From Oscarella lobularis (taxonomy: Eukaryota), in the NCBI RefSeq assembly GCF_947507565.1, contig NC_089176.1, positions 4,076,882 to 4,122,402 of the forward strand: a stretch of 45,521 bases of DNA, written 5' to 3'. The notes under the pieces are model-generated. The model did not search any database and had not been told where the DNA came from. It saw nothing but the letters and a program-made list of their open reading frames with translations. The position numbers and the translations under genes are program-made. Within the stretch, counting starts at the first letter, position 1, and each line of letters begins with the position of its first letter. Shown in pieces: positions 2,425 to 20,401 of the stretch.

Positions 2425-3003
2425 ATGTTGCTGGTTGGCCTTTCGGGCGGGATAGCAAGCGGTAAAAGCACCGTTTCGCGAATACTGTTGGACTGCGGAT
2501 GTCCTATCATCGACGCTGATCAAATAGCTCGCCAAATCGTGCAGCCGGGCTTGCCTAGCTGGCACGCGATCGTTCGCAAATTTGGCCGAGAAATTTTGAA
2601 CGAGGACGAAACGATAAATCGCGAAAAACTCGGAAAAATCATATTTGATGATCCAGCTAAGCGAAGAGTGCTGAACGGTTGCACGCATCCGGCCATTTTA
2701 CGCAGAATGTTGTGGCAAATTTTGACGAATTTTATTCGAGGAGAAAAAGTCGTAATTTTGGATTCTCCGCTTTTGTTTGAAAGTGGGACGTTTGTTCGAT
2801 ATGTTCATCGTACAATTGTTGTATGGTGTTGCGAGGAAAGGCAAATTGAGAGACTTTATCTTCGAAATGGATTTGATAGAGACAGCGCTCTCAAGAGAAT
2901 TCGTGCTCAAATGTCATTGGACGAAAAGCGTCGAAGGGCTACGTACGTTATTGATAATGACGGTCAGCTGGAAAATACAAGACAGCAAATTCAGGAAATT
3001 TGA
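2425..3003 (+). CDS. DCAKD: monofunctional dephospho-CoA kinase (DCAKD-like, CoaE family), lacking the C-terminal hydrophobic tail present in the 4943-5449 fragment
   Basis: 192-aa ORF MLLVGLSGGIASGKSTV... with Walker-A GGIASGKST. Collinear with remembered human DCAKD (MFLVGLTGGIASGKSS...ILDIPLLFE...). Ends QQIQEI* immediately before an acceptor-like ttatttgcag. Confidence 0.75.
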   Translation: MLLVGLSGGIASGKSTVSRILLDCGCPIIDADQIARQIVQPGLPSWHAIVRKFGREILNEDETINREKLGKIIFDDPAKRRVLNGCTHPAILRRMLWQILTNFIRGEKVVILDSPLLFESGTFVRYVHRTIVVWCCEERQIERLYLRNGFDRDSALKRIRAQMSLDEKRRRATYVIDNDGQLENTRQQIQEI

Positions 3004-3029
3004 TGAGTACTGTATTCCTTTCATTTATT

Positions 3030-4480
3030 TGCAGTACGTACTCAAGAAGGATTGAGCGTATGACACCCTAAAGGGCGTTGTCAATGAAATTGGGATTGTT
3101 CGTGGTGTTGCTAGTGGCTTAGACTATCTTCACAGGAGGGAAAAACCGATAAGTAAGGTGCTTAGCTTAGGTTTCTCAAGTAAGCCACTTTAATAACAAT
3201 TAATTAGCTCGTATAAATCTCACCCCCTGCTGGCGTACGTATAATGGAGAAAAACGGAAAGGCAGTAGCGAAGATTTGTGTTACAAGTACTTCGTCCGAA
3301 TTGAATGAACAGGCAATTAATTGCAATGGAAGGATTCATGTCTCCTGAATTCACCGTCAGAACAGTAGATGTGGGTAGGCGGGGCTGTGTGTCAGTGTCT
3401 TATTTCTGTAGAATCCTGATGCGGATGTCTTTTCGTTTGGATGTTTTGCGTACTACGTCATCACGAAAGGACAGCATCCATTCTGTGAACCGGGGAGCGG
3501 GAGCAGTGAGCGAAGCAAAATTCAGTCAAGAATAAACTCTGGCGAGCATAAACCTACTTTCGAAGCGTTGGAACGTAAGTTAATTAATCAATTGATTAAT
3601 TAAACACGTATTTAGTGCCGCTTTAATTAATATTTTTAAAATTTACTCTACGTAGATTTGGTGAGCAAAACCATGAAACTGGAGGTGGAAGAAGACGAAC
3701 TTAGACGTATAGGGAATCCAGCAGCAGCTTTGGCGCTTGTGAAATCTACGTTGGACGAAGGAAAAAAGTGAGTTTGCCTGTCAGTGCGTGCCTTCTCAGC
3801 AGATGCAGCTCGTTACTGTGAATAGGCCTTCATCTTGCTGTATTACAAGTCACTGTTACTTTTTCAACCCGGAACGCCAATGCCATTTTCATCATGTACG
3901 TGGTAATCATTACTCAACTTCGTTGTTGTTACGATTTCTACGCAGGATTTTGGCAATTGTACACCATTTTATGAAGGGAAGAGAACTGGTAATATGGACA
4001 TGGACCCGCTTTTGGACGAACTGTCTGAACACGAAAAAGAAGTCTTTGGTTCTACCAAGTGGGGAGTTCGACTTCTAAGTTTTGGAGCAAAAATAGAAAT
4101 TGAAAATGGTATTGTTTTCTCATAGTTAGTTCTTATCAACTCTTTGTTAAAAGCGTTCTAGATTTTCAGTTCAAGGTTGCATTTAAGGGTAAGGGCGGGA
4201 GAGATGCAGCCAAAAAGTACGACAATTCCATTCAAGGTTTTTCATATTTCCTGCGTGATCAAGTATGAAACTTCGTGTTTTCAAAAATAAACGAACTACA
4301 GAATGATACATGTAGTTTTCTCACGAACTTAACGATGAGAAAAAAAGAGAATTTTGGGAATCGGATGATAAGAAAGCATTGATGCTCAACCGTGGGTTTC
4401 CCAGGCTTCTTCCTGTGTGCTGGGACATAAGCAAGAAAATGCCCAATTTGTCCAAGTATCACTGCGACGAGAAGCATTAG
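3030..4480 (+). pseudogene. disrupted copy of the death-domain/pseudokinase family gene (kinase C-lobe exons + C-terminal exons), paralogous to 8640-10041
   Basis: Exon YVLKKD*AYDTLKGVVNEIGIVRGVASGLDYLHRREKPI carries an in-frame TGA. The next exon (3240-3540) is frameshifted relative to intact copy 8856-9194. Downstream exons (3640-3775, 3950-4078, 4370-4480 ...LNRGFPRLLPVCWDISKKMPNLSKYHCDEKH*) parallel 9228-10041. Confidence 0.45.
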
Positions 4481-4739
4481 ACAATGACCTCTTCATGATA
4501 TCTCTGCCTCTAACCCTTTTTCTAGTTCTACATTTTTACACTGTCAGTTGCACTCACTGACTGTTTTTTTTCTTCGTTTTATACTGTATGTCGTTAGTCT
4601 ATATGGATGCTGCTGGCCGGTCACTACTAATTAACCGTTCTCGGTATTTAATTAACGAAAGCTGTCCGAGGCTACCTGATGATGTACAGTACAGTGGAGA
4701 GGGCGTGCACTAGCCACCCCCGCGTACGGGAGTACGGGA

Positions 4740-5021
4740 GTGAGATTTCGATCCAAGATGGCGACTGCGAGCGAAAGAGACAGGGTTCCCAAAAGGCATC
4801 GCCTTCGGGCGGTGGCCAGCTACATCGGCCCATACTGGGAGCATATCGCTGACCACCTTCTACTCGAGTCCTCTTGTGAAAGGACCATTGAGAGGATTCG
4901 CCGTGATTACAAGTTCTCTCAAGATCAAGCTTTCCAAATGTTGTGCACGTGGTCGGAAATGTTTCATACGGAAGCTACAGAGGAGAAACTGTGCCTTGCT
5001 CTATTAAGCGAAGAGTGCTGA
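4740..5021 (+). CDS. death-domain-like exon (divergent DD subtype), fused in-frame to a DCAKD C-terminal fragment; probably a gene fragment or chimera
   Basis: LRAVASYIGPYWEHIADHLLLES...DYKFSQDQAFQMLCTWSEMFHTEATEEKLCLALLSEEC has the six-helix DD pattern (cf. DD at 10556-10909). Sequence then runs directly into RRVLNGCTHPAIL of DCAKD. Confidence 0.35.
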   Translation: MRFRSKMATASERDRVPKRHRLRAVASYIGPYWEHIADHLLLESSCERTIERIRRDYKFSQDQAFQMLCTWSEMFHTEATEEKLCLALLSEEC

Positions 5022-5449
5022 ACGGTTGCACGCATCCGGCCATTTTACGCAACATGTTGTGGCAAATTTTGACGAATTTCATTCGAGGAGAAAAAGTCGT
5101 AATTTTGGATTCTCCGCTTTTGTTTGAAAGTGGAACGTTTGTTCGATACATTCATCGTACAATTGTTGTATGGTGTTGCGAGGAGAGGCAAATTGAGAGA
5201 CTTTATCTTCGAAATGGATTTGATAGAGACAGCGCTCTCAAGAGAATTCGTGCTCAAATGTCATTGGATGAAAAGCGCCAAAGAGCTACGTACGTTATTG
5301 ATAATAACGATCAGCTGGAAAATACAAGACAGCAAACTCAACAAATTTACAAAGAACTCCTCAAGTCAAAGTGGTGTTTGATGGGCAGGATTTTTAGACT
5401 GTCTTGTTCTTTTCTTATAGGTCTTTTTGTAGCACTATGGTTTCTGTGA
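5005..5449 (+). pseudogene. partial duplicate of DCAKD (C-terminal half, KRRVLNGCTHPAIL onward) retaining the hydrophobic C-terminal tail
   Basis: ~90% nt identity to 2680-3003. Continues ...QQTQQIYKELLKSKWCLMGRIFRLSCSFLIGLFVALWFL*, matching the C-terminal membrane anchor of human DCAKD. No N-terminal P-loop half. Confidence 0.6.
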
Positions 5450-5523
5450 TAATACATTTAATTGGATTTATGAATTAGTGAGCCAGTGACGCGCGAGTCG
5501 TTTATACGGGAATTGCAACGAAC

Positions 5524-5926
5524 ATGTCGTCGAAACTGCCGCACGATCTAGCCGCCGGCGCTGGACAGAAATTGCCAAGTGCGATTCGTCGTCTCAAGGA
5601 TAGAGGGAATGGTTGTAGTAGCGTAGAACGATTTTACAGACGAGATACTTCTCGACCTCGCGAAGAAAATCGGCGGAAAGTGGGATTTTGTAGCAGTCCG
5701 GCTTGGGTTGGCAGATCACGAAACTGAGAATATCCGTGACAATTTCACGAAAGTGCAAGACCGAGCTTTTGAAATGTTGAAGACGTGGCGACAGAATGCC
5801 TTCAAAGACGCAACTCGTACCAATCTCTGTATCGCCTTGCTTAAAGAAAAATTGAAGAGTATCGCGTCGGAAACTTTTGGGGATGACTTTGTTGAAGGGG
5901 TCGACAAATCATTATCGCAGAAGTGA
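5524..5926 (+). CDS. death-domain gene copy A (DD exon followed directly by the family's terminal 'atgatttgtccaagtatcactgcgagaagcat' element; kinase region deleted)
   Basis: ILLDLAKKIGGKWDFVAVRLGLADHETENIRDNFTKVQDRAFEMLKTWRQNAFKDATRTNLCIALLKEKLKSIASETFGDDFVEGVDKSLSQK is a full-length DD. Upstream ATG (5524) lies in a conserved leader shared with copies at 6416 and 7740. Confidence 0.45.
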
Positions 5927-6059
5927 AGGTGATTTTCAAGAAACACGATGATTTGTCCAAGTATCACTGCGAGAAGCATCCGACAGTGTGATATCTCTGC
6001 TCTAGCTCTTTTTCTAGTTTTTACGCTGTTACTTTCTTTCTTTTGCTTTTTGTTATTAT

Positions 6060-6300
6060 CATACGGGCATGTTCAATGTGGATACAGTAGCAAGCGGCGA
6101 AAGCACCGTTTCGCGAGTACAGTTGGATTGCGGATCGACGCCGATCAAATAGCTCGCCAAATCGTGCAGCCGGGCTTGCCTAGCTGGCACGCGATCATTC
6201 GCAAATTTGGCCGAGAAATTTTGAACGAGGACGAAACGATAAATCGCGAAAAAGTCGATCCAGCCAGCTAAGCGAAGAGTGCTGAATGGTTCCAGCTATT
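6060..6300 (+). pseudogene. degraded N-terminal DCAKD fragment (P-loop deleted)
   Basis: gtagcaagcggcgaaagcaccgtttcgcgagtacagttggattgcggatcgacgccgatcaaatagctcgccaaatcgtgcagccgggcttgcc... matches 2455-2650 with deletions. Encodes ...IDADQIARQIVQPGLPSWHAIIRKFGREILNEDETINREK then degenerates. Second near-identical copy at 6940-7185. Confidence 0.6.
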
Positions 6301-6335
6301 TTACGCAGCACTTCACGAGTAGTCTGGAGGCCACA

Positions 6336-6418
6336 CCTATGCCACGGTCACGTGCAAGGGTCAGGTGACCTGACTACTTCACGAGCGAGTCGATTATACG
6401 GGAATTGCAACAAACATG
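6336..6418 (+). promoter_or_regulatory. conserved leader/promoter-like element of the DD gene copies (E-box CACGTG + inverted AGGTCA-like repeat GGTCAGGTGACC + cgagtcgattatacgggaattgcaac.aacATG); repeated at 7661-7742 and partially at 5480-5526
   Basis: Near-identical 80-bp block immediately upstream of the ATG of DD copies B and C. Copy A keeps only the 3' half (gcgcgagtcgtttatacgggaattgcaacgaacATG). Confidence 0.3.
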
Positions 6419-6805
6419 GCGGCGCACGTCGGGGCTGGAGAAGAATTGTCAGGTACAATCCGTCGTCCCAAGGATAGAGAATGATTGTAGCAGCGTAGAA
6501 ACGATTTTACAGATAAGACACTTCTCGACGTCGCGAAGAAAATCGGCGGAAAGTGGGATTTTGTAGCAGTCTGGCTTACGCCCAAGTTGGAAGAGCATGA
6601 AATTGACAATATCAAAGCCAATTTTACGAGAGTACAAGACCAAGCTTTTGAAATGTTGAAGATGTGGCGAAAGAATGGCCACAAAGCTGCAACTCCTACC
6701 AATCTCTGTGTCGCCTTGCTTGAAGAAAAGTTGAAGAAAATCGCGTCGGAAACTTTTGGGGATGACTTTGTTGAAGGGGTCGACAAATCATTATCGCAGA
6801 AGTGA
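6416..6805 (+). CDS. death-domain gene copy B (truncated paralog)
   Basis: Conserved leader ...cgagtcgattatacgggaattgcaacaaacATGgcggcgcac. DD TLLDVAKKIGGKWDFVAVWLTPKLEEHEIDNIKANFTRVQDQAFEMLKMWRKNGHKAATPTNLCVALLEEKLKKIASETFGDDFVEGVDKSLSQK. ~880 bp tandem repeat relative to copy A. Confidence 0.45.
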
Positions 6806-6939
6806 AGGTGATTTTCAAGAAACACGATGATTTGTCCAAGTATCACTGCGAGAAGCATCCGACAGTGTGATATCTCTGCTCTAGCTCTTTTTCTAGTTTT
6901 TACGCTGTTACTTTCGTTCTTTCTTTTGCTTTTTGTTAT

Positions 6940-7185
6940 TATCATACGGGCATGTTCAATGTGGATACAGTAGCAAGCGGCGAAAGCACCGTTTCGCGAG
7001 TACAGTTGGATTGCGGATCGACGCCGATCAAATAGCTCGCCAAATCGTGCAGCCGGGCTTGCCTAGCTGGCACGCGATCATTCGCAAATTTGGCCGAGAA
7101 ATTTTGAACGAGGACGAAACGATAAATCGCGAAAAAGTCGATCCAGCCAGCTAAGCGAAGAGTGCTGAATGGTTCCAGCTATTTT
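6940..7185 (+). pseudogene. second degraded N-terminal DCAKD fragment (tandem repeat of 6060-6300)
   Basis: Near-identical to 6060-6300; part of an ~880-bp tandem repeat that also carries DD copy B. Confidence 0.6.
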
Positions 7186-7739
7186 ACGCAGCACTTCACG
7201 AGTAGTCTGGAGGCCACACCCTTCGCTCGGGAGGAAGGGTCTGGCCAAACGCGCATGGTCCAAGTGTTGCATGCGGTACGCGCTAAACGAATTAAGTTAT
7301 TAGAGACGCCCTACGTCATAGCTTCGACATCGCAAAAGCGAGACAACTAGGGGAGAATTGGAACGTCTAGGCGATCGTACGCAGAAGCGACGAGCTCCGC
7401 AGCAGAGGAGTTCGTCGTTTTCGCGTACTACATTGCTTTCTTTCGCGTACGATCGCCACGTTTTCGCTTACGATCGCGTACGATTGGATGGCTTAAGCGT
7501 GCGATCGACCTGGATCGCTCATCGCTACTCCTATAAAAACATTCGAGGGCGATAAACGGTTAGAACAGCTAATTGGCCCCTACGTCACAGACAACTCGGC
7601 CTGTGATTGGGCCGCACTCCACAGTGCGGGGTGCAACACATCCCCCCCTCCCGATTGACCTGACCCCACGGTCACGTGCAAGGGTCAGGTGACCTGACTA
7701 CTTCACGAGCGAGTCGATTATACGGGAATTGCAACAAAC

Positions 7740-10041
7740 ATGGCGGCGCACGTCGGGGCTGGAGAAGAATTGTCAGGTACAATCCGTCGTCCCAAGGATA
7801 GAGAATGATTGTAGCAGCGTAGAAACGATTTTACAGATAAGACACTTCTCGACGTCGCGAAGAAAATCGGCGGAAAGTGGGATTTTGTAGCAGTCTGGCT
7901 TACGCCCAAGTTGGAAGAGCATGAAATTGACAATATCAAAGCCAATTTTACGAGAGTACAAGACCAAGCTTTTGAAATGTTGAAGATGTGGCGACGGAAT
8001 GACCACAAAGCTGCAACTCGTACCAATCTCTGTGTCGCCTTGCTTGAAGAAAAGTTGAAGAAAATCGCGTCGGAAACTTTTGGGGATGACTTTGTTGAAA
8101 GGGTCGACAAATTATTATCGCAGAAGAGAGAAGGTGATTTTCATGATTTGCAAAACAATAGGCCCATTACCGGTGCTACTGGTACATTTCTTGTAGAAAT
8201 TGAAAAGAGAGGCCAAGACGATAAGAGGGTTTTTGATCTTGAAAATGAGCCGTTCTTCCAGGATATGCATAGGTATGGCCAAATAGATGCAGTAGTTTTA
8301 GTTTTGCAAATTGTTTGAATGGCTAGAGGTTATTTTGTACGTCATCAAAATCAAAAGAAACGTTTGGTGGCTGTCAGAAAAGCTCCTTTGAATGACAAAC
8401 GGATGAGCAATGAAATGGATATCTTGGAATCGAGAAAATGCGACAATTTGATTGGATTTATTGATGTCGTGGTAAGTCTACGGTACCATGTAGCGAGGAC
8501 GTGTATTAGATGTCTACTGCAGACGATTGACACCGTTTGGCACTGCTGTCTTCAATATTGTGAATATTCAGTAGAACAAGTAGGTGCCCAGTCTCTAGTT
8601 GTGCCATCATAGATGCCATACGCTATGTGTATTCCTTTAATTTATTTGTAGTATGTACTTAAGAAGGATGACGCATATAAAACCCTAAAGGGCGTTATCT
8701 ACGAAATTGACATTGTTCGTGGTGTTGCTAGCGGTTTAGACGATCTTCACAGCAGGGAAAAACCAATAAGTAAGGTGCCTGGTTTCGTGTAGGGTCATAT
8801 TCTCTTTAATAATCAATTAGCTCATATAAATCTCGCCCCTGCTGGCGTACGTATAATGGTGGACGAAAACGGAAAGGTAGAAGCAAAAATTTGTGACATA
8901 AGTACTTCGCCCAGATTGTACGAACATGCAATTGCAATGGAAGGATTCATTGTCAGAACAGTAGATGTGGGTAGGTGGGGCTGTGTGTCAGTATCTTACT
9001 TTCTGCAGAATCCAAGTCCTGATGTGGATGTCTTTTCGTTTGGATGTTTTGCGTACTACGTCATCACTAACGGAAAGCATCCGTTCAGTGAGCCTGGGAG
9101 CGTGAGCAGTGAGCTAAGCGAAATTCAGTCAAGAATAGACTCTGGCAAGTTTGAACCTAATTTTGAAGCGTTGGAAGGTAAGTCGATTAATTAATTAATT
9201 AAACGCGTATTTTAGTGTGGTCTTACTATACGTAGATTTGGTGAACAAAAGCGTGGAACTGAAGGTGAAAGAAGACAAAATTAGACGTATAGGGAATCCA
9301 GCAGCAGCTTTGGCGCTTGTGAAATCTACATTGTCTGAAGGAAAAAAGTGAGTTTGCCTGTCAGTGCGTGCATTCTCAGCAGATGCAGCTCGTTACTGTG
9401 AATAGGCCTTCATCTTGCTGTATTAAAAGTCACTGTTACTTTTTCAAGCCGGGTCGCCAAGTTGAATTTCATTGGGTACGCTGTAATCATTACTCAACTT
9501 CATTGTTGTTACAATTTCTATGCAGGATTTTGGCGGTACTACACCATTTTATGAAGGGGAGAAAACTGACAACGAGGATATGGACTCGCTTTTGGACGAA
9601 CTGTCTAGACACGATGAAGACGTCGTTGGTTGGAAAGGTCGACTTGAAAATTTGGGAGCAAAAAAGGGTAGTGTTCTCATAGTAAATTCTCATCAACTCT
9701 TTGTTGAAAGCGCTTCTAGAATTTTTGAGCAAGCAGCTCGTCAGGCACAAAAAATGCGGAGATAACGTCCAATCTTTTTCAAAATTCCTGCGTAATCAAG
9801 TATGAAACTTCATGTTTTCGAAAATAAACTAATTACACAACGGCACGTACATGTAGTTCTCCCACAAACAAAACAGGGACGAAATAAGAGAGTTTTTTGA
9901 ATCGGATGAGAAGAGTGCATTGTTACTCAACCGTGGGTTTCCCAAGCTTCTTCCTGTATGTTGGGAAATAAGCAAGAAGTTGTTGTTGTTGCAAAAACAA
10001 CATGATTTGTCCAAGTATCATTGCGAGAAGCATTTTTCATA
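7740..10041 (+). CDS. death domain + pseudokinase gene (IRAK/Pelle-like domain order), multi-exon; most complete member of the local family, possibly itself inactivated by one in-frame stop
   Basis: DD exon 7825-8130. Same-frame continuation into a kinase N-lobe (8319-8471: ...KKRLVAVRKAPLNDKRMSNEMDILESRKCDNLIGFIDVV|gtaag) but with a TGA at 8316-8318. Exon 8655-8777 (...GVASGLDDLHSREKPI|gtaagg). Exon ~8860-9190 (NGKVEAKICDISTSPRL...DVFSFGCFAYYVITNGKHPF...|gtaag). C-terminal exons 9228-9345, 9520-9690, ~9880-10041 (...LSKYHCEKHFS*). VAIK Lys->Arg, HRD->HSREKP, DFG->DIS. Confidence 0.5.
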
Positions 10042-10393
10042 GGCTTCATGACATTTCCGCCTCTAGCTCTTTTTCTACTACTGCTGTCAGTTGTCGTACT
10101 TTCAATGCGCTGTTTTATTCGATTTTTTACCCTGGCTTTTTTTACTGTTGTTATTGAATATACGGACGTGGTAATAGCACCGTATGACAGTCAAAGTGGG
10201 TGTTTGGTGGGCCGGATTTTTAGACTGTCTTGTTCTTTTCTTATAGGTCTTTTGCAGCAATTTGGTATCTAGGCTGATAATTAATGGCGAACGAGGGCGG
10301 CCTGTGACTGGTTACAGCACGTGCGCAGCGCAACCAACCATACATGGTATGGCGCAACTCGAGCGCGGGTGTGGTAATACGGGCTTCAGCGAA

Positions 10394-13300
10394 CATGGCG
10401 TCGCAAAAAGAAGACTCTCCTGCCAGAAGAGGGTCTACGCCATCTTCATCTTCGACGCGTGACGAGTTTCTTGACGACAATTTAGAGCAAGAAAATTCCT
10501 CTTGCAGCTTTCGTTATGGTAGAGAGGAGTTAGCAGGTAAATAATCGCTAAAAGAGTGGATGAAAACCGTACTAGTAACTACGCTCACTTTATAGAAGAC
10601 CTACTTCTCGATTTGGCGAAGAAAATTGTTTCTTTTTGGCCAAATTTGGCAATCAGGCTGAAGTTGGAGAGAAGTGATATCGATGCTATCGAACTCGATG
10701 TAGAGAAAGTTCAAAACCGAGCGTTCAAAATGCTGATGACATGGAAAGAGCAGGTCTACGAAAAGGCAAATGCTTTCAGTCTTTGCCAAGCTTTGCTTGA
10801 GGAGAAAAGACGGGACATTGCTTTGGAGATTTTTGGAAAAGACTTGGTTAGGAACGTCGAAAGTTCCGCAGAAGGTGATACAGTATTAAATCAGGCTGCC
10901 TTACAATGATGTCTGTTTCTCTTACAGCCGCAAAGAGTGCAAAGGGCTCCCTGCTGTCTTTGGATAATTCAGGAATTGAGAAGGGAGAGAAAAAAATTCT
11001 GGAAGAAAGCTTGCCGCCTCAGTCAAGCTTTAAGCCAACGTTGGGAAGTGAGTCTAGTGGAAAATGTCTTTTGAATCATCACAGTCTTCCTCTCTTGCCG
11101 GAATCGTTTTGCGGGAGAGATGACGTTATACGAGATGTCATTCGGTGTATTGAAGAAGACAAAATTCCTCTTTGCTGGCTTTGGGGGCCACCCGGATGCG
11201 GCACAAGCACTGTCGGAATTGCAGTTCTTCACAGGATACGTGACAGACGGGGAACGCCAAGCGCTGTAGCGGTAAAAGCTTCTCGGTTTTCGTTTCTTCA
11301 ACTGCAAGAACTTATTCGCTCACATTTACGGCAACTTTCTGAGCATGATCATTGTACGTTTCTCGTTGACGGATACGACGAGAATTTAGAGCACCACGAG
11401 AAGGATTTTCTCGTGGCAATTGAGGATTTTGTTCAAGAGCTGGGCAAGGAATTTACTGTGTTGGTGACTTCACATAAAAAGTCTTCTTGCTTTATTGGCG
11501 CATTGCGCGTTGAATCAATTGAAGTCAGCTGGCTTGGAGACGAAGAAGCAACGGAATTGTTGACTTGGCACTATACGGGAGGGAAGAAAGATAGGGTTTC
11601 TGATGACTCTATTCATAAATACCTGAAGCGTCTCGCTCTACGTTGTGATGGAATTCCTTTTGTCCTCAAAGCTGTTGGTTCAGCAGGATATGCAGCTTGT
11701 CATTCTCGTTCTGATCGCGTGTCTATGGAACGTTCAATACGTAACTCGCAGAGGGTTCTTCGCTTAGACAACGCTTTGTTTGAACGGTTTTGCAGCAGTT
11801 TTGATCCAGAAGGAGAAGGACTTGAGGCCTGCTTCAAGACGTGTCATGAACGTTTGCCAGAGGAACTAAAAGTCTTCATTCTGGGTCTGGCTATTATCTC
11901 GGATTCATTTTCTGCCGATTTTGGACGAAAAATTCTTGGTCTTAAACAAAAAGAAAGCGATAGGATTATGACTCGCTTAAAAGATCGGGGCTTGATTACT
12001 TCTTGTCAGCGCAAAAGGGGCCAAGGCTACCGTCAAAGCTACTGTATTCCACGATATTTACGCCAATACCTTATGGCTAAAAGCCAGTCAAGCACCGAAC
12101 AGTGTGTAGCTGCAGCGAGAGCAAGATACTTTGAAAAAATTCGAGAGGTTATCACACATATTTCTAAACGTCTTCGAGATAAAAGGCAGAGCGATGCTCT
12201 GCAGACTTTTACAGATCACAGAAGCAGAATACTTGGTTTTCTTCAGTTGCCCTCCAGCATTTTAGATTCGAAAGCCCATGAAGTTACTATGGCCATCTGC
12301 AAATCTGCTTACGTGAAAAATGTCTTGCTTGACTACGTATTAGTAGACACGCTTCGCCTGTTTTGCGAAACCAGCTTGGATCGTATTGCCAAATCGGACT
12401 CTAAAAGCAAACAGGACGAAGCTTATATTGCTATCTTTTTAGCGCAAATCGTATTAAAGCAGCAGCGGTACCGGCAAGGTGATCTAAAGAAAATAGATGG
12501 TATGCTGCAGGCCGTCGTAAAAGAAGGTACTTTACCGAAAGAGATTTTGCTTCAGCGCAAGATAGCGCAAGCTCAAATTTTAATGGCAAAGGGCGAGCAT
12601 TTTAACGCCGTCGATTTATTAGAAAGGAAGAAAAAGAAAGTGAGTTTATCAGCACTCGCTATTCTTGGAAAAGCGTCGTATCAGCTTGGTATTCGTAACG
12701 CGGCAGATTCGCAATCGGAAGAGGAATTTTGGAAGATTGTGCGTCCTCATTTTGAAGAAGCGAGAGAATGTTTTGCTAAATGCATTGAAAATTTAGCGAA
12801 GAACGATAGCCTGACATGTCTGTATACAATGTGGATTGGAGACTGCTGCTTCTTGATGCGAGAGTATGGCAAAGCGCTGAGAGCCTACGAAGAACTTCTA
12901 AAAGTAGAAGACAGTGTAAATTGGCCCAATACGGGAAGCGACTTTGTTAGCAGGAAGAGGACGCGAGTGTCAGCCACTTACTACGCGTTAGGGCTGTCTC
13001 ACCTACAACTTCACGTCAAGGAAGGAGGCTGGGATGCTAAAGATTTAGCTTTCTGTCTTGCTTCTTTAGATGCTTCAATACAAGGACTCGCTGCAGGGTT
13101 TCCCTACTCTTGCTTTCTTTCAGACGTTGTGTATCGGGCGAGAGGAATAGTGCTTTTGCTACTGGCTTTGAAGGAGCAGTGGAAGACTTCCTCCAACCAG
13201 CCAAACCGTCACGTTGTTGCCTACCTAAGCAAGGCTGTAGAGTCGTTCACGGAGATTTCTTGCAGAAATTCGGTTCTCACTAATGAACGAAAAGCTTTTC

Positions 13301-13929
13301 TTGACGTCGCGAATGCATATAAAGAAGGGCGAACGGTCTCTCCTGAAACCAAGCTCGTTTCAAAATCAGCGCGAATTTTATTGGACCTAACACCTGGCTC
13401 TGAAAAATCGAAGGTGAAGCTTCTTTTTGCCAAGTCTCTTTTGTATCTCGATATTGTTGAAAAAGACAGAAATCAAAGACTGGTGTCTCATGAAAAAGCT
13501 TTGTCTTATGAAAGAGCTTTTGATTCGGACTTGGATGCGTCTGATTCTGAAGACGATGATGACGATGACGATGATGACGATGAAGACGGTGACGGCGTTC
13601 CCGACTCCTCCTATGAACATCAAACAGCATATGCAGCAAGCCGTTTCCAAAGACGAAAAGTTATGAAAGGATTCGTAAATTGCTTTTTGCCATCTTGGAC
13701 AAATGAGACAATTCAATCACAGTCTAATGGAACTGGTCTCAATGAAACGCAAACATTGGCATCTGAGCTGATCACATCGTCTGTTGAGTGGGCAGATCTT
13801 ACGTACTCCGGTCTTCCCGGGCGTTCTTGTCCTGCGAGAGCTAAAAATTCTAGTGGCAACTACTCGTCATCCGATTTCACTACTCGGAAGTCCGCAAAGA
13901 CTGGTCCTCCTGTGATGGACCACTCTTGA
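10394..13929 (+). CDS. death domain - P-loop STAND NTPase (NACHT/NB-ARC-like, Walker-A Lys replaced by Thr) - TPR-like helical repeat protein; NLR-like/Apaf-like architecture
   Basis: Candidate exon 1 MASQKEDSPARRGS... (10394-~10536). DD exon 10556-10909 (...LDLAKKIVSFWPNLAIRLKLERSDIDAIELDVEKVQNRAFKMLMTWKEQ...CQALLEEKRRDIALEIFGKD). 1007-codon ORF 10906-13929 with LWGPPGCGTSTVGIAVL (Walker A, K->T), CTFLVDGYDE (Walker B), long helical C-terminus and acidic tract. DD/NTPase junction differs in frame and the splice is unresolved. Confidence 0.6.
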
Positions 13930-14039: not shown

Positions 14040-15330
14040 CGACAACTTTGACGGACCTTTTCGGCAGTATCAATGCCCCACATAGTCAAAAGTCCTTCGT
14101 ATCCACCGACTTCATATTCGTCAGGAGTTGCAAAATAGCCCATGTGATTATTGCTGTATCTGGAGAGAAGCGATTGAAGGAGAGATTGTTATTCTTGAGA
14201 AATCTGTACCCTGCAAGAAGAGTATTCGTGAATCCCAATTTGAGCGAGTCATTTCGAATATTCCACCCAAGCTCAAGCAGCGCTTCTCCTGGAACGGTCA
14301 CCATGAGAGTATGGTTTCCACCGATACTAGAAAGGAAAGGAAATCAGTCTCTGTTTGGATTGAAAATTTATTACCTTATATTCAATGCAGTGAACGTTGG
14401 AGACTCTTCAATCCAGGCAGAATCCAAGTGAAGGTTAACATCACAGCGAAGCTGATTGGGGAGAAAAGACGCGTGGCTGGCTATTTGTCATCGCTCTGCC
14501 TACTCACCACCCTGCAGAGAGAACAGATGTCGAGTGGACCGCCCTGCGTACAATTTGCGACACGGGCTAGAGTCAAATTCCCCTGCGTCTCTCCAAAATC
14601 GACTACAGTGGAAGCGGAAACGAGTCCGACGTCGTCCGACGTCACCGGCGTATCGTCGCGCAGCCGTTGAACGGCAGACGCAATAACGGGCGCTCCGGCA
14701 TAATTGGGTTTGCCGGCACACGCAGATCCAGCTAAAAACGACAAACAAATTCGTCTAGAGACAGCTATAGTCGTCTTATTGACCGACCGGGAGCAATGTC
14801 TCCAGCGTCGGCATTGATGAACATGGCGACGCTTTGATGACCGACAGCCGTCTCGATGGCGTCGCATGCACCACCCATGATGTCGCCGTTGGAAAGCATT
14901 TGATCGGGTCCCCAGCACGTTCCATGAATGGCAAAGTTCCACACTTAATAAATAAATAAATAGAGAGAGAAGGCGGTAGGCGAAGCGTTTGAAGATTGTA
15001 TCTTGAAGCGTACCTGTCGCCAAAGGGGTTCCATCCGACGATCGATCGACACGTATGACGCCCAAATGAGGATCAATTGAACCGACTTGCACGTACGGAC
15101 TGATGTCGGCTCGTCGATTTTCCGTCACTCCGACCAGTTGACCAAAATCTATAAAAGTCAATATTTGTCATCGTCTAACATCTGGCGGCGGACGAGCGAG
15201 AGACGGACTAATTCCCATTTTGGCTGGTTGGAGATTGGCTTGCGCCTGAAGCATTGCGTCGGCGAGAGACGATGCAAGCATGTCTTGAAGCTCTGCAAGA
15301 GCAAGGCAATGAAATTAGCGTCCGTTTGAT
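14040..15330 (-). CDS. unidentified multi-exon gene (minus strand); exons encode ...LQDMLASSLADAMLQAQANLQPAKMGI / DFGQLVGVTENRRADISPYVQVGSIDPHLGVIRVDRSSDGTPLAT / GNFAIHGTCWGPDQMLSNGDIMGGACDAIETAVGHQSVAMFINADAGDIAPG / AGSACAGKPNYAGAPVIASAVQRL...
   Basis: Consecutive open segments on the minus strand joined by plausible GT/AG sites (e.g. acceptor cttttatag|attttggtcaactgg at ~15128, donor after ...PLAT at ~15008). Product not recognised with confidence. Confidence 0.3.
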
Positions 15331-16349
15331 TGTTTACGCTTCGATCGTTTGCTGGCCACTACCGGCTTCGATGGGCGGCCGGTGGCGGAATGGACTACCT
15401 ACCTGGAACAAGGATATCAGTAGCCGGCGCAAGAGACCAGAGGAGTTCAGGCGTCACGGCGCCTGGTCCGCTATGAGTGTGCGATCCGTGGACGGTGAAG
15501 CGATCGAACGGCACGGTGAAACCGCGCGCCGCCGCCTTTTCCCAGGCGAGTTTTCGCAACGTGCCGTCAGCGCCTAGCAGCCTCCGTCACGTACGGTATA
15601 CGTATGGAAAAGTGCGGTCACAATGTTATACCAATTGCGTCAACCGTAAGAAAACAGAAGGTCGTATTGCCATTATCGAGAAGGAGCGCTTTTGCCCACG
15701 TCGTTTGCAGGTGGCCCACACTCGGAGTCATAAACTGCAGACAGGTATCTTTTAGTAGGTCTGCGATTCCCCCCGCCCACCCCATCATATGCAATAAGAG
15801 CTTACATTTGTATACTGCTTTGGATCGGGTAGAGGCCAGTATTTGACTCTTCTCTCTCCATGGTTATAGCCTAGCAGAGGACGTACATATAGCCAGTGTC
15901 TGTTGCGTGTGCGCATATTCATTGAACATCCTATTGACTCACCTGCCAGTGGAACGCCGACAGGAAGAGTTGCTGTAAGGAAAAAATTCGATAAGTGTCG
16001 CGCGGTATCCGATAGGGGCAAGTTATTCAATATTCACTCTAGCCGAGAGGCGTGTTTACGTAACGGCTTGCGAGGCGGGGTTTGCAGAGGATAAAAGGGC
16101 TCGCGCTCGGACACGAACGAACGAAAGGTCAACTTTGTTTGGGTTCCCCCGGCGACTGACCGTTGACTTTGGCCACGCCAGCACGTAGGGTGCCTGCAGT
16201 CGCAGCTGTAAGAGACAAGAGGAAGAAGACGAAGAAGGAGAACATTGGCCTCCGAGGAGGGGTGGAGTCGCAGACAAGAGAAGAGAGGACTATCCGGGTG
16301 CACACGCCCCTCCCCCTCGATAAGGCTTCTTCCCTCGCGTTCGTTCTCG

Positions 16350-19300
16350 ATGGCGAGGACGCTGCCTCAATGCGGCGTTCTACGATTGACTCTTCTCTTT
16401 GCCGCGCTCGTCGTCGTCGTTCAGGTCGTCGTTTTAGTTCGCTTCTCGTCGTCGTACGATGACGTTGACAATTCGAAAGGAGCGATTGGGGCTCCCAACG
16501 GGGAAACGCGAACGTCGATCCCTGCTGTGGTCTCTCGTACGAGCGACAGAGTCACAGAGGTAAGTTGCGTAGAGACGACGAGGAGAGAGAAGGACTTATT
16601 TACGTAGAAGCCGCATTTTGTCGACGATCGTCGCAAAGAAGAAGAAAGTCGGAAGCCGGAACGTATTAATGTCGACTCTCGCATCACAAAAGAAATGCCA
16701 GTGAACGTTCTTGTTCCTTCAGACAACGATGACGACGAGGAGGAGAAGGAAGAGGAGAAGAAAGAGGAGAAAGAGGATGCAGAGGTGAGTTGGAGCGAAC
16801 CGACAACGAGTCCATGCGACATCGAATGGCCCGACGCTCAATCGGCACTCAATCGAGCGCGTAGCGATCAATGCAAAGCGGAGCTACGACGCGTCACTTG
16901 TCTCGCTCAACGTAATCTTCTTTACGATGTCAATTTGAAGAAGAGTTGTCCTTCTTTGCCAACCGCCGCCGCCGCCGGCGCTGGCGGCGCTGGCGCGATT
17001 CAAAAAGAGCAACGTGTCGTCGATTGGAAAGATCTACGAATCGTTTATCTGATGGTTGTACATGGTCGTGCATTTCGACAGTTTCGTCGACTTTTCAAAG
17101 CGATTTATAATCGACAGCATTACTATTACATTCACGTCGATTCGGTGAGAAAAAGAAAAAGAGAGAGGAGAATCTACATATGCACGTATACGTAGAGGGT
17201 GACCATCTGGTCAGTCCGTCCTACTTGTGTCTAGTGCGAGGGTTTGAGACGTATAGATAGCTGAAAAGTGCGTCTAGGCAAACATCAGACCGACTCGATA
17301 TCCTCATCTTTTACCCCTCTTTTCTCAATTCCATTAGCGACAAGGGCTTCCGCTTGCATGCCACAAACGTTTCCCTTTCCTATAACAATAATATCTTTTC
17401 TTGGGGGCTAGAGATCCGACTATTTGCATCGAAAGATTGAGGAGTTGGCCTATGATTATTCGAACGTCGTTTTGTCGTCGTGGCGATTGGCTTCGATTTG
17501 GGGCGGAGCTAGTCTTCTACAAGTTTTGCTTCGTTCCATCGACGATCTCATACAACGACGTGACTGGGAGTGGGATTTCGTAATTAATTTAAGCGAAAGC
17601 GACTATCCTATTAAGTAAATGGCCTCGCACAAGACGACGCGTGTTTCATATTTTTATTGAGTATTTATAGAACGGAAGAAGCGTTGATGAAGTATCTCGC
17701 CCAACGTCGTGGGAAGAATTTTCTGAAGCCACACGGAGGCAATGCCATGAGGTGAGGCGGATGTGATTGGGGAAATATCCCTTCCCTAGGGGCGTGATTG
17801 TGATCCATCCATCATCGATTATTAGATTTATTAAGAAACAAGGTCTCGATCGAACGTTCGTGGAATGCGACAATCACATGTGGCGAATAGGAAATCGCGT
17901 TGTTCCGCCTGATATTGACGTCGATGGGGGAAGCGATTGGATCTGTTTGAATCGCGAGTTTAGTGACTATCTCATCAATTCAAGAGACCATTTGCTCGTT
18001 GGACTCAAACAGATGTATAAGTATTCTTTACTTCCGGCTGAGGTGAGTGAGTAACAGTACTATTTATGAATAATCTACGTTTTTTTTTCTAGTCGTTTTT
18101 TCATACTGTTCTTCGCAATGGACCCATGTGTCATTCGTTTGAGAAGAATAATCTTCGCGTGACGAATTGGAATCGAAAATTGGGCTGTCGTTGTCAATAC
18201 AAACACATTGTCGATTGGTGTGGTTGTTCTCCTAACGATTTCAAGCCAGAGGATTTAGGTCGACTTCAGGTGAGGCACAAAAAAAAAAGAGAAGAGAAAT
18301 TAGAAAGCGCCATATTTCTTCTTTTCAGAATTCCCCTGATCGATTTTTTGCGCGAAAATTCGAAGCGGTCGTAAATCAGGAAATTATTAATCGACTCGAC
18401 TCGTGGCTCTTTGGGGAAATGCCTCCAGATACGCCCGGTATGGATACATACATCGAAAGTCTTTATCACGTAGACGATACACTGATAAAGCCGCCAGATT
18501 CACATATGACTTGTTGGCTTGCGTTCATGCGATTGGGCACAAGTCATTTAGGGCAAATATCAAAGCAACAGCAGCACGGGGGTGTCGGGGGTGGTGTATT
18601 AGGAGCAGATTCTGGCTCTAATCATCCCCATGGCAGCCCCTGTGCACTCGAACCCGTTGGAAAACCAATTGAAGTGAGCGTTTTTAAGGAAAAGGACGAT
18701 CTTCGCGGGCTTGTTGTGACGTTTGACGTCAGTCCCGTGGGAACGGGGGGACGGCAACGTTTAAAAGCGCAAACGTGGTTTGAACGAATTGCTGATCCGA
18801 CGACGTATTCGGCATTGAGAGGACCTTCAGCACGACTCACATTTTTAGGAGTAAGACCTACGTCTTTTCTGCTCTACGTCCTTTTGGTTTTTTTAGGTTG
18901 GATATCACTACGATGAAAAGGAGAGAATGTTTCGTAGTTTTGGAAATATTATCGGTCCCCATGACGACGTCGTCGTCGCTTGTCAATGGACCCAAGGAAT
19001 GGTTATCACTGTCAAATTCACGTGGTATGATCCACTTGGTCAAGTGGCAGCCGTTCAATCTCAATCTGTTCAAGCGACGTCCGTTGTCTCCTTTTATCGT
19101 CCTTCTCTCGATCGACCACTCAAACCGGGCGTTTGGCGAACTGTAGCTGAGTACGAAGGTGAGAAATTGGCGTCTACTGAATTCGTTATTATGCCCGTTT
19201 CCGTTCACAATGGCGTCGAGATGCGTGACATGGAATTGGCGGCGAAATTAAATGGCATTCCTAGTCATGCCGCCGCCGCCGCCGCCGCCAATAATGATCG

Positions 19301-19514
19301 CGTTCTTCGCGACGTTCCAGACGTGAATCGTTGGGTAGACGCCGTTGTTGGGAAGCATTGGCGATTGCAAGGCTTTTGCTTGGAAACGGCGCCACCGCAA
19401 GACGAATGCGGTTCATCGGCCGTTTCTCTTTGCTCTTCGGAATATTGGAGTACAGCTTATCCTGATCCCAAATCGGAATTGGGTCCTATAGGAAAAAATG
19501 GTCGCATCCGGTAG
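16350..19514 (+). CDS. XYLT: protein xylosyltransferase (XYLT1/2 / oxt / sqv-6 family, GT14 core), type II membrane protein, multi-exon
   Basis: Exon 1 16350-16559 ([24 protein letters not shown]... signal anchor; donor gag|gtaagt). 48-bp intron. Exon 2 16608-17144 (...[36 protein letters not shown]|gtgag). Further exons ~17412-17605 ([23 protein letters not shown]...[15 protein letters not shown]), ~17655-17752, ~17782-18048 ([24 protein letters not shown]...DGGSDW), ~18100-18270 ([37 protein letters not shown]), ~18322-18850, ~18900-19514 (...[18 protein letters not shown]). Collinear with remembered human XYLT2 including the C-terminal DPKSELGP motif. Confidence 0.85.
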
Positions 19515-20342
19515 CACATAGACTTGGATTTTATTCTCTTACTAGCATGCCGTATTAGTTTGTTGGTGGTTGAGGTGGGCGATGGATGGCGGCGGCGCAG
19601 AGCTACTTTAGGAATTATGGTTGTAGACAGGAGGAAAAAAAGATGGAGTCAGTGTGTAGCACTACTACATGTAGATTATTATAGACTGACTGAAGCTGTC
19701 CGCCGCCGCCCGATTCTCTATCCCTACCATCGTACCTGATTGTTTTTTCTAGTAGAGAGATCAAATGTTTTCAAATAAATTATTGACTCTGTATTTCTTC
19801 GTACGGGGACCGCGCTCTTCGCCACGTCAGCGTTGACGTCACGGTACGGAAGCGTGTTTCGCTTCGTTCGCCGTCGAATAAGGGTATTTTAGACGCGAAA
19901 GTTTAGCTCTGCTATTGTTTGGTTTAGGATTGGCGAGATAGTGCGTCTTTTTTCGTCGCATATCGATTGTTGTCGCCGCTTCCGCCGCCATCTTTCAGTT
20001 TGTCTGATTAAATCAGCGCGTAGGGCGGTGCGTTACGTCTTACGTCGTTCGCGAGGACCGTCTCGGATCCTTAGAGCAAGCGTCGAGTGAAAAAGAAATG
20101 GAATAGACGAAGAAAAGCGAGCTACAATCAGTGTATCGTTTTTCCTTCGTTTTCTTCGTTTCTGACATCACTACGGACACGTGCACGAGCAATTTGAATC
20201 GTGGATTTCTATATTTGGACGGCGCGTTTCCGGGTAATGGCTATTGGGCGTCGATTGAGCGACTAGACAGTCGCAACTGCGCGATCCTCTTTCGTCGTCC
20301 AAGAGATGAGACACGACCCATGGCACACACATTCCCATTCAC

Positions 20343-20349
20343 TATAAAA
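20343..20349 (+). promoter_or_regulatory. TATA box (TATAAAA) ~55 bp upstream of the start codon of the cbEGF gene
   Basis: actataaaacgcagtcgctgagccgagacacatcacttc...ATG(20402). Confidence 0.35.
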
Positions 20350-20401
20350 CGCAGTCGCTGAGCCGAGACACATCACTTCTTCATTGTCCCTCATCACGAA
20401 G

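Follow-up and report, generated by a model that had tools for sequence, protein, structure and literature searches.

A subtelomeric mosaic of dephospho-CoA kinase gene copies, death-domain exons and IRE1-like kinase genes in the sponge Oscarella lobularis

The 45,521-nucleotide stretch of Oscarella lobularis DNA analysed here (NC_089176.1, positions 4,076,882 to 4,122,402; hereafter the window) contains an array in which pieces of the gene for dephospho-CoA kinase (DCAKD) alternate with exons for death domains (DD) and with complete or partial IRE1-like kinase genes. It is likely, taking this reading as a whole, that the haplotype represented by the window is one form of a structurally polymorphic subtelomeric cluster of fast-evolving signalling genes, and that an intact DCAKD gene immediately upstream of the window covers the DCAKD function while the other copies in this haplotype would be relics. 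The array itself most probably arose when a multi-gene unit was duplicated in tandem and the copies then underwent unequal crossing-over and deletions. The evidence comes from a second haplotype of the same region, from a unit of the array that is a hybrid of its two neighbours, and from the recurrence of the same gene adjacency at several places.

Two haplotypes of the locus

The window lies on the primary contig ptg000371l (108 kb, hifiasm-style), and the alternate haplotype (hereafter hapB) is represented by contig atg000654l, which is collinear with the primary contig on both flanks. The upstream flanks are 98.4% identical across 7.4 kb with a matching gene order, and the downstream flanks are 92.6% identical across 5.5 kb. 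The interval between the flanks measures 15.9 kb in the primary haplotype, but only 5.2 kb in hapB, where it holds, in this order, an upstream block named X, one intact DCAKD gene present as a single copy directly behind X, a DD-STAND gene (DD-STAND-A) and an orphan DCAKD tail. The hapB region is devoid of kinase-like sequence.

Repeats were mapped by self-blastn of the window, and domains were called by Pfam with a cut-off of 22.6 bits for the Death family. The features of the primary haplotype are as follows, in window coordinates, with negative values lying upstream of the window.

-6201 to -5504: X0, upstream block
-5495 to -2901: K0, TIR-like / IRE1-like gene, every exon open
-2767 to -2087: D0, intact DCAKD gene
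After D0, to about 1650: DD-STAND-0, death domain and STAND NTPase
1707 to 2395, + strand: X1, native upstream region of DCAKD, with the motif AATACGGGCATG at its end, 39 nt before the ATG
2425 to 3003, + strand: D1, DCAKD without C-terminal anchor, 192 aa, its stop codon made at the junction
3011 to 4527, + strand: K1, 3' portion of an IRE1-like gene, beginning inside the intron before exon 5 and ending in T1
4740 to 5021, + strand: D1dd, diverged DD exon of the DD-STAND type, ATG at 4758, cut off at its junction with a DCAKD half
5005 to 5449, + strand: BT, DCAKD codons 79-225 (3' half and hydrophobic tail), no start codon
5489 to 6337, + strand: U1, with leader, exon 1 (5524-5578), DD exon (5640-5926), T (5941-6019), ATACGGG spacer and a' (6088-6308)
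6342 to 7220, + strand: U2, recombinant unit, with exon 1 (6416-6452), DD exon (6513-6805), T (6820-6898) and a' (6971-7191)
6088 to 6308 (in U1) and 6971 to 7191 (in U2), + strand: a', degraded DCAKD 5' fragments resembling 2453-2705 at 82%
7221 to 7665: GC-rich insert of 445 bp between U2 and U3
7666 to 10077, + strand: U3+K2, intact gene for a DD, an IRE1-like pseudokinase and a KEN-like domain, 12 exons (7740-10042), 565 aa
4446 to 4527 (T1), 5941 to 6019 (U1), 6820 to 6898 (U2) and 9995 to 10077 (T2): terminal element T, with the self-blastn matches in U1 and U2 covering 5951-6019 and 6830-6898
10124 to 10279, + strand: internally deleted DCAKD relic, with spacer, ATACGG motif and P-loop codons 13-17, followed by a jump to codons ~198-225
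10396 to 13929, + strand: DD-STAND-B, downstream collinear flank, death domain and STAND/NB-ARC-like NTPase

X1 is 90.4% identical to X0, and the stretch from X1 through DCAKD is continuous with the hapB upstream region and its intact DCAKD gene at 96.1%. The X block of hapB passes from the X0-like shared flank into X1-like sequence. DD-STAND-B matches the Pfam Death family at 37.2 bits, shows NPHP3_N and NB-ARC matches, and is 92.6% identical to positions 15219-20681 of hapB. The corresponding gene of hapB (14505-20681 in hapB coordinates) resembles DD-STAND-0 at its DD end (81%) and DD-STAND-B from 15219 onwards (92.6%). This gene therefore looks hybrid, which suggests that further unequal exchange has occurred among the STAND genes.

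Intact copies of the DCAKD gene

A preliminary description of the window had left it unclear whether a functional membrane-anchored dephospho-CoA kinase is retained at this locus. The search for an intact gene that it proposed was successful in both haplotypes. D0, located 2.1-2.8 kb upstream of the window, is a complete single-exon DCAKD gene that runs from the P-loop through the tail, and its 226-aa product agrees at every residue with RefSeq XP_065826875.1 ('dephospho-CoA kinase-like [Oscarella lobularis]'). The intact gene of hapB, the product of which is P0001, is a second copy with 97% identity. D0 matches the CoaE family (PF01121) at 196.6 bits, against a gathering score of 27. The closest named relative is the DCAKD-like protein of the homoscleromorph sponge Corticium candelabrum (59% identity), and the next-closest matches include one 56%-identical protein.

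The Walker A P-loop GGIASGKS is present in D0, D1 and the hapB copy, but not in BT, while a tail-anchor-like hydrophobic segment is carried by D0, the hapB copy and BT, but not by D1. When the best 19-residue window within the last 40 aa was scored for hydropathy, D0 reached 2.12 and D1 -0.85. A hydrophobic C-terminus (score ≥1.6) is found in 85 of 93 eukaryote-type DCAKD homologs versus 0 of 22 bacterial CoaE proteins. The ratio of nonsynonymous to synonymous substitution rates (dN/dS) between D0 and the hapB gene is 0.07, and both intact copies are thus under strong purifying selection. Since D0 and the hapB copy are intact and bear the tail, the anchored enzyme has been retained, and the worry that the sponge might have lost it is resolved. 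Altogether, the primary haplotype contains one intact DCAKD gene and five partial copies, namely D1, BT, the two 5' fragments and the relic.

Partial copies of the DCAKD gene

The open reading frame (ORF) of D1 was originally reported to stop exactly where the copy at 5005-5449 enters the hydrophobic tail, with a kinase cassette inserted at that very point, and both statements are confirmed by our analysis. The CoaE match of D1 (2425-3000; 199.9 bits) covers positions 2-179 of the 180-position profile. D1 is 96.7% identical to D0 and 97.6% identical to the hapB allele, and has only two to three private substitutions. The CoaE match of BT (5006-5446; 84.2 bits) covers profile positions 78-179 only. 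The two fragments overlap in content, as 2658-3001 of D1 corresponds to 5005-5348 of BT with 95.3% identity, and they have the derived residue S164 in common. The match of BT to the hapB DCAKD gene (92.1%) runs past the stop codon into the DD leader. In position, BT corresponds to the 3' end of the hapB gene, and it is decaying; its private changes comprise five nonsynonymous versus three synonymous codons, plus the loss of the last codon. D1 and BT would then be two parts of one positional DCAKD allele that was split by a 2-kb insertion, consisting of the K1 fragment and D1dd, with the 344-bp DCAKD duplication flanking it.

The remaining pieces are shorter. Deletions have taken out the start codon region of the two a' fragments. 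The orphan tail that had been described in front of the DD-STAND gene is present (5364-5445 corresponds to 10189-10270 with 90% identity), but it belongs to the larger relic at 10124-10279, and in hapB, too, an orphan tail precedes this DD-STAND gene at the corresponding position. Tentatively, a remnant of a DCAKD start may be present after T1, where ATGGATGCTGCTGGCCGG at ~4598-4615 shows a similarity of merely 11/14.

A chimera of a DD and a DCAKD half had also been proposed at 4740-5021. The end of D1dd (4740-5018; Pfam Death 21.9 bits, just under the cut-off) aligns with the DD of DD-STAND-0, and the junction between D1dd and BT would lie inside AAGCGAAGAG, which is similar to both parent sequences. 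The DD ORF does not share its reading frame with the DCAKD half, which rules out an in-frame chimera of the two.

Death-domain units and the terminal element

Self-blastn reproduced all of the repeats that had been listed for this region, with identities of 74-98%. The notion of a unit of ~880 bp occurring three times holds for the first two copies only, since the third shares merely the first ~480 bp (7666-8146) and then continues as a full 12-exon gene. U1 and U2 are 90.3% identical (5489-6337 versus 6381-7220), and U2 and U3 are 97.9% identical (6342-6820 versus 7666-8146). The Pfam Death scores are 35.3 bits for U1, 32.3 bits for U2 and 32.6 bits for U3. In U1 and U2 exon 1 is intact, the intron is of the GT-AG type and the DD ORFs are open. 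In U1 the DD exon meets T at the point where K2 holds 1.85 kb of exons, and from this comparison U1 and U2 appear to be IRE1-like genes minus all kinase/KEN exons, which a 1.85-kb deletion joining the DD exon to T would explain.

The structure of U2 reveals that recombination has taken place. Up to ~6745 the unit follows U3 almost letter for letter (blocks of 100/100 and 91/91), from ~6775 onwards it is identical to U1 (blocks of 98-100/100), and the switch point lies inside a 40-nt stretch that is identical across U1, U2 and U3. A hybrid unit that switches within such a shared stretch is the expected product of unequal crossing-over. U2 also has changes of its own, namely four to five private substitutions and a 4-nt indel. 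These substitutions are clustered within ~35 nt (6655-6690), just upstream of the switch between U3 and U1, in a copy that is otherwise identical; the cluster could stem from error-prone synthesis during repair, or from gene conversion by a paralog that was not sampled.

The identity of each half of U2 with a neighbouring unit over 300-400 bp is also what false duplication during assembly would produce, and the extra units could in that case be haplotype mis-joins. The primary contig was found in one sample only, and its agreement with RefSeq may rest on the same reads. Nevertheless, an assembly artefact is very unlikely. The paralogous copies diverge by 2-25%, and the copies with zero divergence that would have pointed to such an artefact were not seen, except that each half of U2 matches a neighbour; U2 itself carries the private substitutions and the 4-nt indel. 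No copy on the primary contig is as near to hapB as the allelic flank (96.1% for X1-D1 versus 98.4%), and the exons of K0, K1, K2 and D0 are matched at 100% by RefSeq proteins. Typical HiFi reads exceed the whole array (8 kb), which likewise counts against this explanation. A mis-join of haplotypes in particular is rejected, as the two haplotypes were assembled separately and have collinear flanks.

The terminal element that had been described in the repeated units does recur, but it represents the last coding exon of the kinase gene (..DLSKYHCEKH*) together with its 3' flank; the exon is in frame, and ..LSKYHC..KH* is conserved. An ~80-bp element that recurs at unit ends might also be viewed as a transposon end, in which case the DCAKD and DD pieces would have been scattered by transposon capture of the Pack-MULE or Helitron type, or by retroposition. 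The 445-bp insert, the ends of which form a weak inverted repeat of 13 nt, is in keeping with such a view. We reject this explanation, which is extremely improbable, for the reasons that the terminal element is an in-frame coding exon with its 3' flank and that K1 retains introns and begins mid-intron, and is thus not a retrocopy. Moreover, the junctions showed neither target-site duplications nor poly(A) tracts, and the copies all share one orientation and follow the gene order of the parent unit. The 445-bp insert also contains internal inverted repeats (GGCGATCGTACGC...). A comparison with 58 kb of the primary haplotype and 20.7 kb of hapB revealed no second copy of it, and Rfam gave no match in the window, this insert included.

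Two sequence motifs accompany the units. The leader of the DD genes (7666-7702, also 6342-6378) opens with the palindromes CACGTG and GGTCAGGTGACC, and the preceding a' fragment has an imperfect inverted copy at its end (7201-7223). The palindromes may serve as promoter sites or form a recombination-prone hairpin. The heptamer ATACGGG occurs in the window at 2386, 5504, 6061, 6396, 6944, 7720 and 10377, and furthermore at -5513 and -2789 and at 9964, 10735 and 14484 of hapB. It is located 18-39 nt before the start codon in all gene types of the cluster (DCAKD, DD-kinase, TIR-like kinase and DD-STAND), always on the + strand. The window holds 9 copies versus 2.3 expected, a number reached in 0 of 100 shuffles, and the single-copy flank upstream (7.4 kb) has none. 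Several junctions of the rearranged pieces coincide with the heptamer, which may act as a core-promoter element common to these genes or as a microhomology for recombination.

Structure and state of the kinase genes

All introns of U3+K2 are of the GT-AG type, and the RefSeq protein P0125 (539 aa, 'serine/threonine-protein kinase/endoribonuclease IRE1-like') is identical to our model of this gene except for two splice choices. K1 resembles K2 with 77.5% identity (3011-4524 versus 8628-10077) and K0 with 75.5%; it has an in-frame stop in exon 5 and a frameshift in exon 6, but its exons 7-12 are open.

A further RefSeq protein, P0126 (577 aa, 'IRE1-like'), joins exons 1-7 of K0 (-5495 to -3803) to exons 8-12 of K1 (3655-4477), the latter at 100% identity. 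The implied intron measures 7.46 kb and encloses D0, DD-STAND-0, X1 and D1, whereas the other introns at the locus are 42-180 nt long, and exons 8-12 of K0 itself are intact with good splice sites. The junction in P0126 would reflect either genuine splicing, long-range or alternative, or an artefact of annotation.

When K0 is compared with K2, each of the nine indels in exons has a length divisible by three, against 4 of 12 in introns. Identity is not higher in exons (85.0%) than in introns (87.8%). The dN/dS between K0 and K2 is 0.82, the values for the kinase genes overall are about 0.8-1.0, and those for the DD exon are 1.2-2.9. K0 and K2 thus appear to keep their reading frame while the encoded protein diversifies.

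The IRE1-like kinase and its C-terminal domain

The product of K2 had been designated a pseudokinase. This view is supported by the catalytic positions of K0, K1 and K2, which read VAVR, H-I-N and D-I-S in place of the VAIK lysine, the HRD aspartate and DFG, so that all three look like pseudokinases, and it can be refined to an IRE1-like pseudokinase with a probable KEN domain. A 44%-identical relative, P0127, keeps HRD and DFG. Pfam finds Death and Pkinase in the K2 product (Pkinase 41.9 bits). With phmmer against PDB, 16 of 16 matches of this product were IRE1 (E 1e-11), and a profile search against PDB placed IRE1 first and TTK far behind, the significant matches being restricted to the kinase C-lobe and the kinase-KEN junction. 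At the N-terminus, K2/P0125 has a death domain, while K0/P0126 has a weak TIR-like match (TIR E-values of 9e-4 to 7e-3, below the cut-off).

The C-terminal ~200 aa are less readily assigned. A single-sequence HMMER search of 1.84 billion representatives gave three matches, namely the genuine relative P0127, a fragment of its gene and a repetitive zinc-finger protein considered a false match, and thus no direct link to IRE1 or RNase L. A word-index homolog search with alignment mostly added unrelated kinases. Pfam did not match the KEN family (Ribonuc_2-5A, PF06479) in the K2 product, and in P0127 the KEN match of 18.0 bits, over positions 12-119 of the 127-position profile, remained below the cut-off of 23.3. 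Profile-profile alignment by hhalign of the C-terminal part with IRE1-like proteins gave a probability of 98.6% (E 4.8e-16), but the last part of the kinase C-lobe contributes to this alignment; restricted to KEN, the comparison gave a probability of 34.5% (E 4.2e-4, 111 columns). The domain aligns collinearly with KEN, and both have an FP.LL motif in common. In addition, the R-x4-6-H motif of the HEPN/KEN families, as defined previously (PMC3710099), is found as LRNQFSH in K2, LRNQFCH in K0, LRNQICH in P0127 and LRDQFSH in K1 (N to D), where it aligns with MRNKKHH of IRE1. A structure model of P0127 was weak (pLDDT 50, pTM 0.51), and a Foldseek search with this low-confidence model returned IRE1 kinase/RNase structures for all of the top 50 matches, over ~350 of 361 columns. 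An AlphaFold2 model of P0125, made from an alignment of five sequences, had a mean pLDDT of 40 and was kept out of the fold search. Judging from motifs, profiles and this model, homology of the C-terminal domain with KEN is probable.

Kinase+RNase homologs are widespread, but RNase L proper is restricted to jawed vertebrates (PMC10400998). A survey of HEPN domains lists fusions of KEN with kinase, ankyrin, CCCH, ubiquitin-like and BRCT domains, with DD and TIR not among them (PMC3710099), and we found no account in the literature of this locus or of DD/TIR-KEN fusions. One could go further and regard the amplified genes as undescribed cytosolic immune effectors that couple a DD or TIR-like domain to a pseudokinase of the IRE1/RNase L type and to a KEN endoribonuclease that is active, in a haplotype-variable, diversifying subtelomeric array, with the RNase exons of K1 serving the upstream gene as an alternative 3' cassette. 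We regard this as unlikely. Were the domain active, the sponge, an early-branching animal, would have in it a candidate effector that cleaves RNA downstream of death-fold/TIR signalling, and if the effector proposal as a whole were true, the sponge would possess an 'RNase L analogue' wired to such signalling.

Origin of the array

The preliminary description attributed the array to ectopic recombination between the DCAKD gene and a family of DD genes. Its general conclusion, that the region is a recombination-generated mosaic with DD-only units and orphan DCAKD pieces, stands, but the two genes were not exchange partners. Instead, they belong to a co-duplicated multi-gene unit that includes the kinase gene, as indicated by the recurrent adjacency of the kinase 3' end, an ATACGGG spacer and the DCAKD 5' end. 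This adjacency is found in four clear cases (T0-D0, U1, U2 and K2-relic), and possibly in a fifth case after T1. The succession of a DCAKD tail and a DD leader is seen in both haplotypes. We propose that, initially, a unit consisting of an IRE1-like gene with its 3' end T, a DCAKD gene and a DD gene was tandemly duplicated several times, and that later events reshaped the resulting array: paralogous units crossed over unequally, and short homologies served as sites of deletion and insertion. Every copy points the same way and keeps the gene order of the parent unit; together with the hybrid unit and the difference in copy number between the haplotypes, these are the features expected from duplication and non-allelic homologous recombination.

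Several of our observations weigh against this proposal. The order of events is not uniquely fixed by the sequences, and both haplotypes are mosaics, as exemplified by the hybrid DD-STAND gene of hapB. The RefSeq assembly may share the same reads, so that its agreement with our contig is possibly not independent. D1 shows no sign of decay: it has the full CoaE domain, only two to three private substitutions and a native upstream region, and could therefore still be expressed as a soluble enzyme. The DD-only ORFs of U1 and U2 are open, exons 7-12 of K1 stay open, and its exons 8-12 are part of a RefSeq model. Lastly, a dN/dS near 1 for the kinase and DD sequences also fits neutral decay, which leaves the frame-preserving indels as the sole argument for function.

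These points could be accommodated if the rearrangements had led to functional innovation, with D1 as a soluble dephospho-CoA kinase, U1 and U2 as DD-only adaptors or decoys, and exons 8-12 of K1 as an alternative 3' RNase cassette for K0. Besides its full CoaE domain and the native promoter region X1, D1 has fewer private changes than BT (p about 0.02-0.06 in a hand-calculated binomial test). In U1 and U2 exon 1 is intact, the intron has GT-AG ends and the DD ORF is uninterrupted, and in K1 exons 7-12 are open even though exons 5-6 are broken, while P0126 links exons 1-7 of K0 with exons 8-12 of K1 across 7.46 kb. On the other hand, K0 has intact exons 8-12 of its own and the other introns are far shorter, so that the long-range model of P0126 may be an annotation artefact. 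The protein cluster at 90% identity that links D1 to XP_065826875.1 contains no NCBI protein for D1 or BT, and the dN/dS of the DD exon (1.2-2.9) does not favour such roles. None of these parts can be essential, as hapB is without all of them, and recent events can account for the open ORFs. We therefore consider such innovation rather unlikely, and favour the view that the partial copies are by-products of duplication and unequal crossing-over.

Chromosomal context

The end of the window contains (TTAGGG)n blocks and satellites:

43273 to 43580: (AGCTTAGCCC)x31
From 43907: (TTAGGG)n blocks interleaved with satellites of 91, 141, 288 and 429 bp, with GGGTTA x55 up to the window end at 45521

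The orientation of the telomere repeats fits that of a true chromosome end, and the whole window is therefore subtelomeric. The distance from the array to the (TTAGGG)n telomere is ~35-43 kb. Downstream of the array, tandem exons for EGF-like (calcium-binding EGF) domains are located at 21172-23577, with periods of 114-165 bp and mutual identities of 64-76%. They are followed by a second, larger tandem segmental duplication of ~7.3 kb (25639-32959 and 33222-40580; 86-92% identity), which contains two reverse-strand ORFs of ~310 aa without a clear Pfam family.

Comparison with known systems

The locus is a new and well-resolved example of a known process, in which a subtelomeric cluster of immune-type genes evolves by birth and death, here with a housekeeping gene as bystander. 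It illustrates how unequal crossing-over and short-homology junctions reshape such a cluster, and the compact second haplotype provides a basis for comparison. The more interesting by-product of our analysis is the family of DD/TIR-linked IRE1-like pseudokinases with a probable KEN RNase domain.

Direct-orientation blocks of graded divergence are likewise found in plant NLR clusters, the vertebrate KIR/LRC, sponge NLR expansions and subtelomeric segmental duplications. Birth-and-death immune clusters also have in common with this locus the hybrid units that switch within identical stretches, the presence or absence of whole genes between haplotypes, the bystander pseudogene fragments and a dN/dS near or above 1 in signalling domains, here within ~40 kb of the telomere. 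Unlike in those clusters, the bystander is a conserved metabolic gene, DCAKD, the pieces of which mark each duplication. Unlike in classical NLR or Ig receptor clusters, the amplified genes combine DD or TIR domains with an IRE1-like kinase and a KEN-like domain. As in animal DCAKD, a CoaE domain, a P-loop and the hydrophobic C-terminus typical of eukaryotic homologs are found in D0 and the hapB copy and, divided between two pieces, in D1 and BT; the locus differs from the typical animal situation by its one intact and five partial copies, and by the lack of the anchor in D1.

Among kinases, the sponge kinase domain is closest to that of IRE1, and the collinear C-terminal domain shows conservation of the Rx4H and FP.LL motifs. 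As in RNase L, the catalytic residues of the kinase are degenerate and an N-terminal signalling or ligand module takes the place of the luminal sensor of the endoplasmic reticulum. In contrast to IRE1, the sponge genes are without a transmembrane or luminal domain, and in contrast to RNase L they are without ankyrin repeats; from both they differ in the KEN match, which is below the Pfam threshold, and in the tiny size of the family. An N-terminal death domain followed by a kinase or pseudokinase, in an innate-immunity-like neighbourhood, is likewise known from IRAK/Pelle, but the best and only specific PDB matches of the sponge kinase are to IRE1, and its KEN-like C-terminal extension is absent from IRAKs.

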